From the NCBI RefSeq assembly GCF_003790525.1, contig NZ_CP033635.1: DNA of 64,000 nt. One strand, 5' to 3'. The position numbers were made by a program, and so were the translations under genes. This stretch comes from Escherichia coli. Lineage in GTDB: Bacteria; Pseudomonadota; Gammaproteobacteria; Enterobacterales; Enterobacteriaceae. The notes below the pieces were generated by a model. That model saw only the letters and a program-made list of their open reading frames with translations, was not told the DNA's origin and ran no database searches. Below are positions 59,349-60,767 of this stretch, one piece after another (position 1 is the stretch's first letter; every line of letters starts with the position of its first letter).

Positions 59349-60767
59349 TCAGACAACTTCCTCACCGTAACGCATAGTGCTGGTACGGTTGCGCCCATCT
59401 TTCTTCGAGCGATACAGACATGTATCGGCTTCGACCATCAATTTATTAAAGTCATCGGTCAGCGTTCGGTACGATGCGCAACCACTACCGACGCCAATAC
59501 TTACCGTGAGATAAAGCGTTTTTTGTTGCCAGGTGAACGGTTGCAGTTCAACGCCTTTACGGATTTTTTCCGCCATTAGCAGACCATCTACAGGATTCAC
59601 CGATGGCACTGCAACAGCAAATTCCTCGCCGCCCATTCGCGCCACCAGCCCCTTATCACCGACAATCTTCTGAATATGCTGGGCAAACACGCTTAACACT
59701 TTATCGCCACATTCATGTCCATAGTTATCGTTAATGCTTTTGAAATAGTCGATATCAAGCAGCATGACAGTCAGATGTTGTGTCTGTTTCAGCGATGGAC
59801 TTTTCAGCGCCTCATAAAGACCGGACCGTGAGTAAACCTGAGTCAGAAAATCAAAGTCGGCTCGCAGCGCAACTTGCTTCATTAGCGAATTGATCGCTGC
59901 CACGCTAAAAGAAACCATAATTGGGCATATCGCCATCGTGGCAATACCGAGACGTGCGGAGAACATTTCTGGAATGGAGAATGGCGAACCGACCGAGATA
60001 TCAATCACCGAATTTGCCACCAGTACGATTTCCACCGCACCGGTGACAAAGGTCAACAGACATGTTACCTGCGGCGTATAGCGCACTGCACACCAGATTA
60101 ATGCAGGGAGCGGAAACGCCAGACTCCCCGCTCCGCCAATGACTACCGAGGCAATAACCGACACAATAAGCGCGATAGCAGGCATCATCTGCTCTGCTTT
60201 AAAGCGCGGCAGTACTCCAGGAATTGCCAACGTCAGCATACAAGGCACGATCAACACGCCCGTTGAGAATTGCTCACTGAACCAGTCGGCAAGCAAAGGC
60301 CAGAAATCCAGACTATCAATACTGACCGAACCAATCGCCCCGACAATAGCGCATAATAATGCGGCAATCAGACAGTAATTAAATAGCCGTAAGGCACTTA
60401 CTGGCTCATACTTATTTTTCCCCAGACGCTTATCCCGCGCGACCAGTAAGGCGACGGTAACAATAAACATCATATTGGAGAAATTGATAGCCAGTGAAAC
60501 CAGCCCCCATTCGGTGGTTATGGCATCATAAACCAGCATCGCCACATAACTGATCGCATAGTAATGCAGTCGATTAAGCCAGACATAGCGGGCAAACACC
60601 CCCGCCATTACGCCATTCAGCGGCCAGAAAAGAGAAAGTTCGTGAACCAGCCGTAACTCTGCACCAATAAAATAGAACAGCGTGGTTAGCACAAAAATAG
60701 CGATGCTATTACGTAGCAGATGACCTTCCTGGAACAAACGGAAAGTTGAAATGGGCTGTACATGCAT
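59349..60767 (-). CDS. yneF: Membrane-anchored diguanylate cyclase YneF (DgcF)
   Basis: 472-codon ORF: about 300 aa polytopic membrane domain followed by a GGDEF domain with RMGGEEF active-site motif. Start codon uncertain; my recollection of a shorter K-12 annotation does not line up with any internal ATG here. Confidence 0.8.
   Translation of the reverse strand: MHVQPISTFRLFQEGHLLRNSIAIFVLTTLFYFIGAELRLVHELSLFWPLNGVMAGVFARYVWLNRLHYYAISYVAMLVYDAITTEWGLVSLAINFSNMMFIVTVALLVARDKRLGKNKYEPVSALRLFNYCLIAALLCAIVGAIGSVSIDSLDFWPLLADWFSEQFSTGVLIVPCMLTLAIPGVLPRFKAEQMMPAIALIVSVIASVVIGGAGSLAFPLPALIWCAVRYTPQVTCLLTFVTGAVEIVLVANSVIDISVGSPFSIPEMFSARLGIATMAICPIMVSFSVAAINSLMKQVALRADFDFLTQVYSRSGLYEALKSPSLKQTQHLTVMLLDIDYFKSINDNYGHECGDKVLSVFAQHIQKIVGDKGLVARMGGEEFAVAVPSVNPVDGLLMAEKIRKGVELQPFTWQQKTLYLTVSIGVGSGCASYRTLTDDFNKLMVEADTCLYRSKKDGRNRTSTMRYGEEVV

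Follow-up and report, generated by a model that had tools for sequence, protein, structure and literature searches.

Full-length dgcF (yneF) of Escherichia coli, a likely inner-membrane diguanylate cyclase with a divergent MASE1-like domain, and its truncation by deletion in K-12

An uninterrupted reading frame in Escherichia coli (assembly GCF_003790525.1, contig NZ_CP033635.1) is very probably the intact, ancestral dgcF (yneF) gene, encoding an inner-membrane diguanylate cyclase, of which the 315-residue form annotated in K-12 is an annotation artefact that followed a deletion. The frame lies within a stretch of 64,000 nucleotides, referred to here as the window, and the region is 100% identical to E. 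coli SMS-3-5, in which PGAP places the same 472-residue coding sequence (WP_000558449.1) under the name "sensor domain-containing diguanylate cyclase". This identity and the position of the gene downstream of glsB-yneG identify the window coding sequence as a full-length DgcF/YneF orthologue. An earlier note, made from the letters of this DNA, had described yneF as a frame that stays open for 472 codons and that places a GGDEF domain with the sequence RMGGEEF after about 300 residues of membrane sequence; the frame is indeed a single open reading frame, and Pfam, hydropathy and an AlphaFold2 model agree with the domain arrangement (Table 1).

Table 1. Features of the dgcF region, in window coordinates.
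Feature	Position	Strand	Basis or remark
dgcF (yneF) full-length CDS	59349..60767	minus	472 codons plus stop, ATG start (ORF list)
dgcF ATG start codon	60765..60767	minus	first start codon after in-frame TAA
Weak Shine-Dalgarno-like GGA within ATGGA	60778..60780	minus	11-13 nt upstream of ATG
Candidate -10 element GATAAT	60799..60804	minus	31 nt upstream of ATG, inside K-12 deletion
Membrane domain, residues 17-304, ten predicted helices	59856..60719	minus	hydropathy and AlphaFold2
First six predicted helices, residues 17-179	60231..60719	minus	predicted fold like ECF-transporter S-components
GGDEF domain, residues 303-461	59385..59861	minus	Pfam PF00990
Active-site (A-site) motif GGEEF, residues 379-383	59619..59633	minus	read from sequence
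498-bp segment missing from E. coli K-12	60335..60832		blastn against K-12 RV308 and junction sequences
TTG (Leu158), start of the 315-aa MG1655 annotation	60294..60296	minus	b1522 coordinates/sequence and codon table

The start of the gene is well delimited. An in-frame TAA (60771-60773) lies two codons 5' of the ATG, so that no 5' extension of the frame is possible, and Met1 is aligned across the proteins of E. coli, E. fergusonii, Citrobacter, Enterobacter and Lelliottia, with which the DNA alignment agrees. The sequence ATGGA is invariant in the upstream alignment of E. coli, E. fergusonii and Enterobacter, and its GGA may have a role in ribosome binding. Further upstream, a (G/A)AT(A/T)ATTGCC block is nearly conserved in the three genera, with two variable positions, and the GATAAT listed in Table 1 is, at the level of consensus, a candidate -10 element for dgcF. 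Scanning of the dgcF region for promoters returned four sites, compared with 3.8 expected from shuffled sequence, and a terminator scan of the same region found none. The top-scoring sigma-70-like match was a second GATAAT (60770-60775), which was rejected as the dgcF promoter because it stops 2 nt short of the ATG, too near to serve that start.

The assignment of the catalytic domain is firm. The Pfam GGDEF model matches with an E-value of 4.5e-41 and a score of 140.7 bits, compared with a curated cutoff of 23.8, and NCBIfam concurs; the GG(D/E)EF motif is intact, RMGGEEF occupying residues 377-383, and the conserved catalytic and GTP-binding positions are present. In an alignment of 81 family members, the columns of D338, D340, N346, D347, H351, D355, R377, K455 and R459 are at least 90% conserved. 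A table for strain CFT073 gives the YneF signature KNDHDRGGEEF, the same as that of DgcF in the window. The I-site motif RxxD, sought five residues before GG(D/E)EF, is absent, residues 370-373 being GDKG, which agrees with the lack of an I-site reported previously (Richter et al., 2014), and DgcF falls outside the product-inhibited (I-site) subclass of diguanylate cyclases. Production of c-di-GMP has been documented in S. flexneri, where dgcF raises its level as measured by LC-MS/MS, while a GG->AA mutant does not.

The membrane domain was modelled with AlphaFold2 from the 81-sequence alignment (pLDDT 91.1, pTM 0.84). Its predicted helices span residues 17-37, 49-60, 67-84, 89-111, 122-147, 155-179, 191-210, 213-229, 232-251 and 265-304, and the last of these, of about 40 residues, runs unbroken into the GGDEF domain in the model. 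All of the predicted periplasmic loops are short, and positive charges cluster at residues 10-19, 60-66, 111-127, 188-190, 229 and 297-302. The topology is thus probably N-in/C-in with short periplasmic loops. Scans of DgcF with Pfam and NCBIfam found the GGDEF domain alone, the N-terminus giving no match to MASE1-9, 5TMR or any other model at E ≤ 1. The name MASE5 was considered for this domain and dropped, as a literature search gave nothing relevant, and no internal repeat was detected on comparing residues 10-150 with residues 151-300 (hhalign probability 0.5%). With residues 1-304 as the query, a HMMER search through 1.84 billion cluster representatives recovered 410 relatives, most of them 460-490 residues long, and a C-terminal GGDEF domain is present in all 81 that were aligned and scanned. 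Identity within the family is about 25-40%, and R39, W48, P49, N51, D81, N98 and W162 are at least 90% conserved.

Alignment to MASE-type sensor domains, which the earlier note had proposed as a check, gave a positive answer by a transitive route alone: the link to MASE1 (PF05231) runs through relatives of DgcF, and DgcF itself gives no match. Neither DgcF, at E ≤ 1 (the gathering score being 29.8 bits), nor its closest relatives outside Escherichia (P0121, P0132, P0133 and P0136) matched the MASE1 model. The relatives entering this test had been found with the N-terminal 304 residues alone (E-values of 1e-15 to 1e-55, full-length alignments), and MASE1 was matched by 57 of the 81 that were aligned at E ≤ 0.1 and by 16 at E ≤ 4e-7, which corresponds approximately to the gathering score; the best E-value was 3.2e-11, and most relatives scored 12-27 bits, under the 29.8-bit cutoff. 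In the twenty members listed, the matches were mostly collinear, extending from about position 5 to 295 of the 299 in the model. For the reference domains of E. coli, the Pfam MASE1 scores are 60 bits (UhpB) and 240 bits (PdeF). When the family of DgcF N-termini was compared with the MASE1 domains of UhpB and PdeF, a thin two-sequence reference, hhalign gave probabilities of 4-25% over 30-39 columns and hmmsearch no more than 7.5 bits. The aligned columns centre on an FPLPALIWCAxRY motif, at which FPLPALIWCAVRY of DgcF aligns with LLPLMMWGAMRY of PdeF, and this was the only motif aligned in the UhpB/PdeF profile comparison.

The matches of the relatives support homology of the DgcF membrane domain to MASE1 through intermediates, with DgcF itself standing outside formal Pfam membership. 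Since direct comparison with UhpB and PdeF reaches no significance beyond the one motif, the domain is best described, on sequence grounds, as a divergent MASE1-like clade. The MASE1 domains of DgcE, PdeF and UhpB are likewise multi-helix N-terminal modules that lack a large periplasmic domain and are connected to a cytoplasmic signalling output; unlike the Pfam MASE1 proteins, DgcF has no reportable MASE1 score of its own.

S-components of ECF transporters are embedded in the membrane and bind vitamins and metals with high affinity, the substrate site lying in the periplasmic half of a six-helix bundle. The first six helices predicted for DgcF resemble the six-helix fold of the S-components RibU, FolT, ThiT, BioY, BtuM, PanT and CbiM, at 6-15% sequence identity. 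DgcF gave no match to the Pfam S-component families, and no EcfT or EcfA gene lies near dgcF, whose neighbours are uxaB, yneG, glsB and sad; because both are missing, the link is one of fold resemblance. The predicted DgcF bundle, unlike an S-component, is followed by four further helices and the GGDEF domain. DgcF is therefore not classed as an S-component, and the likeness, which is one of predicted structure, implies neither transport nor ligand binding. The highly conserved residues of the membrane domain (R39, W48, P49, N51, D81, N98 and W162) would, by the predicted topology, be directed toward the periplasmic half of helices 1-6. A further-reaching proposal, that DgcF and the MASE1-like family as a whole are built on the S-component fold, with R39, W48, N51, D81, N98 and W162 lining a pocket through which a ligand would gate the cyclase, is speculative, and we consider it rather unlikely to be correct. 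No paper linking MASE1 to S-components was found in the literature searched, and domain databases may already group them.

GGDEF domains must pair for c-di-GMP to be synthesized. Given the parts of DgcF, namely, a ten-helix, N-in/C-in MASE1-like domain, a connecting helix and a cytoplasmic GGDEF domain that keeps the GGEEF motif and has no RxxD, a mode of action can be proposed by analogy with DgcE and UhpB, both MASE1 proteins. The membrane module, probably as a dimer, would respond to a partner protein or to a signal at the level of the membrane, and the connecting helix would pass the state of the module to the geometry of the two GGDEF domains. DgcE would be the parallel for such gating, since its MASE1 domain has an activating role, being required for activation and targeted by the GTPase RdcA. 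Sensing and gating by DgcF are advanced by analogy, and the membrane domain may be a sensor that controls the cyclase.

The principal rival to a sensory role is that the membrane domain is a mere anchor or dimerization scaffold for a constitutive cyclase and senses nothing. The lack of an I-site and of a known ligand and the uniformly short periplasmic loops of the model are compatible with this idea, to which we attach a low but appreciable probability. Ten helices, however, far exceed the needs of an anchor, and the polar and aromatic residues R39, W48, P49, N51, D81, N98 and W162 are more than 90% conserved within the helices, clustering, by the predicted topology, toward the periplasmic half of a bundle with the predicted fold of the ligand-binding S-components. 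In addition, related MASE1 domains do receive input, as exemplified by the action of RdcA on DgcE. A sensory domain that would control cyclase activity remains the preferred reading.

The earlier note had mentioned a shorter K-12 annotation and had seen no internal ATG that would match it, and the K-12 sequences account for both points. The curated MG1655 record for dgcF (b1522) specifies 948 bp and 315 residues. Of a 1.9-kb query, K-12 strains match only 74%, as two stretches on either side of a 498-bp segment that they lack. This segment reaches from 65 bp upstream of the ATG through codon 144 to the first base of codon 145, and its ends share no visible microhomology. Because this loss takes the ATG and codons 1-144, the K-12 protein has been annotated from the TTG at codon 158, and it is for this reason that no internal ATG fits the K-12 form. 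The deletion removes the first five of the ten predicted helices, and PGAP flags the gene of K-12 RV308 as a pseudogene ("incomplete; missing N-terminus"). The 315-residue K-12 DgcF is an annotation artefact that followed the deletion. An interpretation of the K-12 form as the product of an alternative internal start in an otherwise intact gene was ruled out by the 498-bp deletion.

Strains with the long gene might, in addition to the full-length protein, make a shorter product of physiological relevance by initiating at TTG158 or elsewhere within the frame. Multiple protein isoforms have been reported for pseudogene diguanylate cyclases of S. flexneri, and one sigma-70-like match is present inside the dgcF reading frame (60498-60469). 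That match, however, is within chance (four found against 3.8 expected), no Shine-Dalgarno sequence precedes TTG158, and the product would begin between helices five and six of what is predicted to be one folded domain. Furthermore, the K-12 remnant is reported not to be expressed, while the long form of yneF shows weak and mainly RpoS-dependent expression (Richter et al., 2014), and over-expression of K-12 DgcF does not inhibit motility, unlike that of the membrane cyclases DgcC, DgcE and DgcJ. A functional short isoform in such strains is therefore very improbable.

The distribution of the two forms indicates which is original. Among 5426 complete E. coli genomes, the dgcF locus is found in 5415, and the 498-bp segment, the presence or absence of which was used to count long and short forms, is found in 4196 (approximately 77% long form). 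Besides K-12 derivatives, the roughly 1,200 genomes without it (22%) include isolates from humans, animals and rivers. Records labelled as plasmids account for five of the matches to the dgcF region, and a few genomes have up to three copies.

Proteins of 472-482 residues in E. fergusonii, Citrobacter, Enterobacter and Lelliottia have a collinear N-terminus, with 71-87% identity over the first 304 residues. The order glsB-yneG-yneF is kept in E. fergusonii and Enterobacter, in which the orthologues have 472-479 residues, and the relatives from Citrobacter and Lelliottia have 478-482. On the other side of the gene, uxaB adjoins yneF in E. fergusonii and is separated from it by two genes in Enterobacter (locus L006, 4560-6135), which encode a GAF-GGDEF cyclase of 321 residues and an acetyltransferase, neither of them present in E. 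coli or E. fergusonii. Relative to E. fergusonii, codons 1-144 have a dN of 0.115, a dS of about 2.2 and an omega of about 0.05, and they are constrained as much as the remainder of dgcF; these rates indicate that the codons missing from K-12 are under strong purifying selection.

Comparative sequence evidence thus identifies the long dgcF as the ancestral form, coding throughout, and the K-12 form as its deletion derivative, and the suggestion of the earlier note that the long form may be the functional protein is supported by the 77% frequency, the conserved gene order, the omega of about 0.05 and the literature. That the long frame is instead a fusion or insertion specific to SMS-3-5 and the K-12 length original, for which nothing speaks beyond the existence of the K-12 annotation, has virtually no probability left, being refuted by the genome counts, by the presence of the long form, with gene order preserved, in both E. 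fergusonii and Enterobacter, by the selection on codons 1-144, and being opposed as well by the PGAP designation of the K-12-type gene as N-terminally incomplete.

Two side observations concern the history of the locus. The genes sad, glsB, yneG and yneF (window positions 59349-63643) are near synonymous saturation with respect to E. fergusonii (L004), with pS values of 0.65-0.74, while pS is only 0.13 for uxaB (57670-59121), which lies next to this block, and the break falls in the yneF-uxaB intergenic region. On this pattern, either the sad-yneF block or uxaB may have been exchanged long ago in one lineage, horizontally or by allelic replacement. Separately, three chimeric reading frames from other E. 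coli assemblies (P0005, P0007 and P0058) include 77-100% of the membrane domain of DgcF, with 98-100% identity, and their only precomputed Pfam match is HipA (514 and 460 residues) or Bestrophin_2 (394 residues). In E. fergusonii, Bestrophin_2 is also the family assigned to the gene that lies downstream of uxaB. These frames point to strain-specific rearrangements or deletions at the dgcF locus other than that of K-12.

The truncation of dgcF has already been published (Richter et al., 2014; EMBO Mol Med, PMC4287979), and the gene described there is the same as that of the window, with no difference in substance. That study reported an extended yneF in EAEC O104:H4 and EHEC O157:H7, and recognized that K-12 yneF is truncated at the 5' end by a deletion and that its start codon is misannotated. 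In full-size YneF, according to the same authors, roughly 300 N-terminal residues form a highly hydrophobic domain, the A-site is intact and an I-site is lacking. The present analysis recovered all of this from the DNA sequence. The present finding is real but ordinary and, since the structure and truncation of dgcF were in the literature, it adds nothing fundamental to them; what it adds is the exact coordinates of the deletion, a count of its frequency across 5426 complete genomes, a connection with MASE1 by way of remote family members and the fold prediction.

For studies of this cyclase, K-12 is not a valid reference. Work with the 315-residue K-12 "DgcF", ASKA and Keio clones and domain tables among it, deals with a remnant that has lost its promoter and five of the ten predicted helices. 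The intact enzyme is present in approximately three quarters of E. coli genomes and has been linked to phenotypes in biofilm formation, adherence, acid sensitivity and invasion. In CFT073, deletion of yneF led to less biofilm on glycerol and less adherence to bladder cells, both of which were complemented by a heterologous cyclase, and in S. flexneri dgcF affects acid survival and invasion. The sole lead that may be new is the S-component-like fold predicted for the sensor module; it points to testable ligand-binding residues and, if the S-component reading were true, would offer a concrete route to the long-unknown inputs of MASE1-type sensors.
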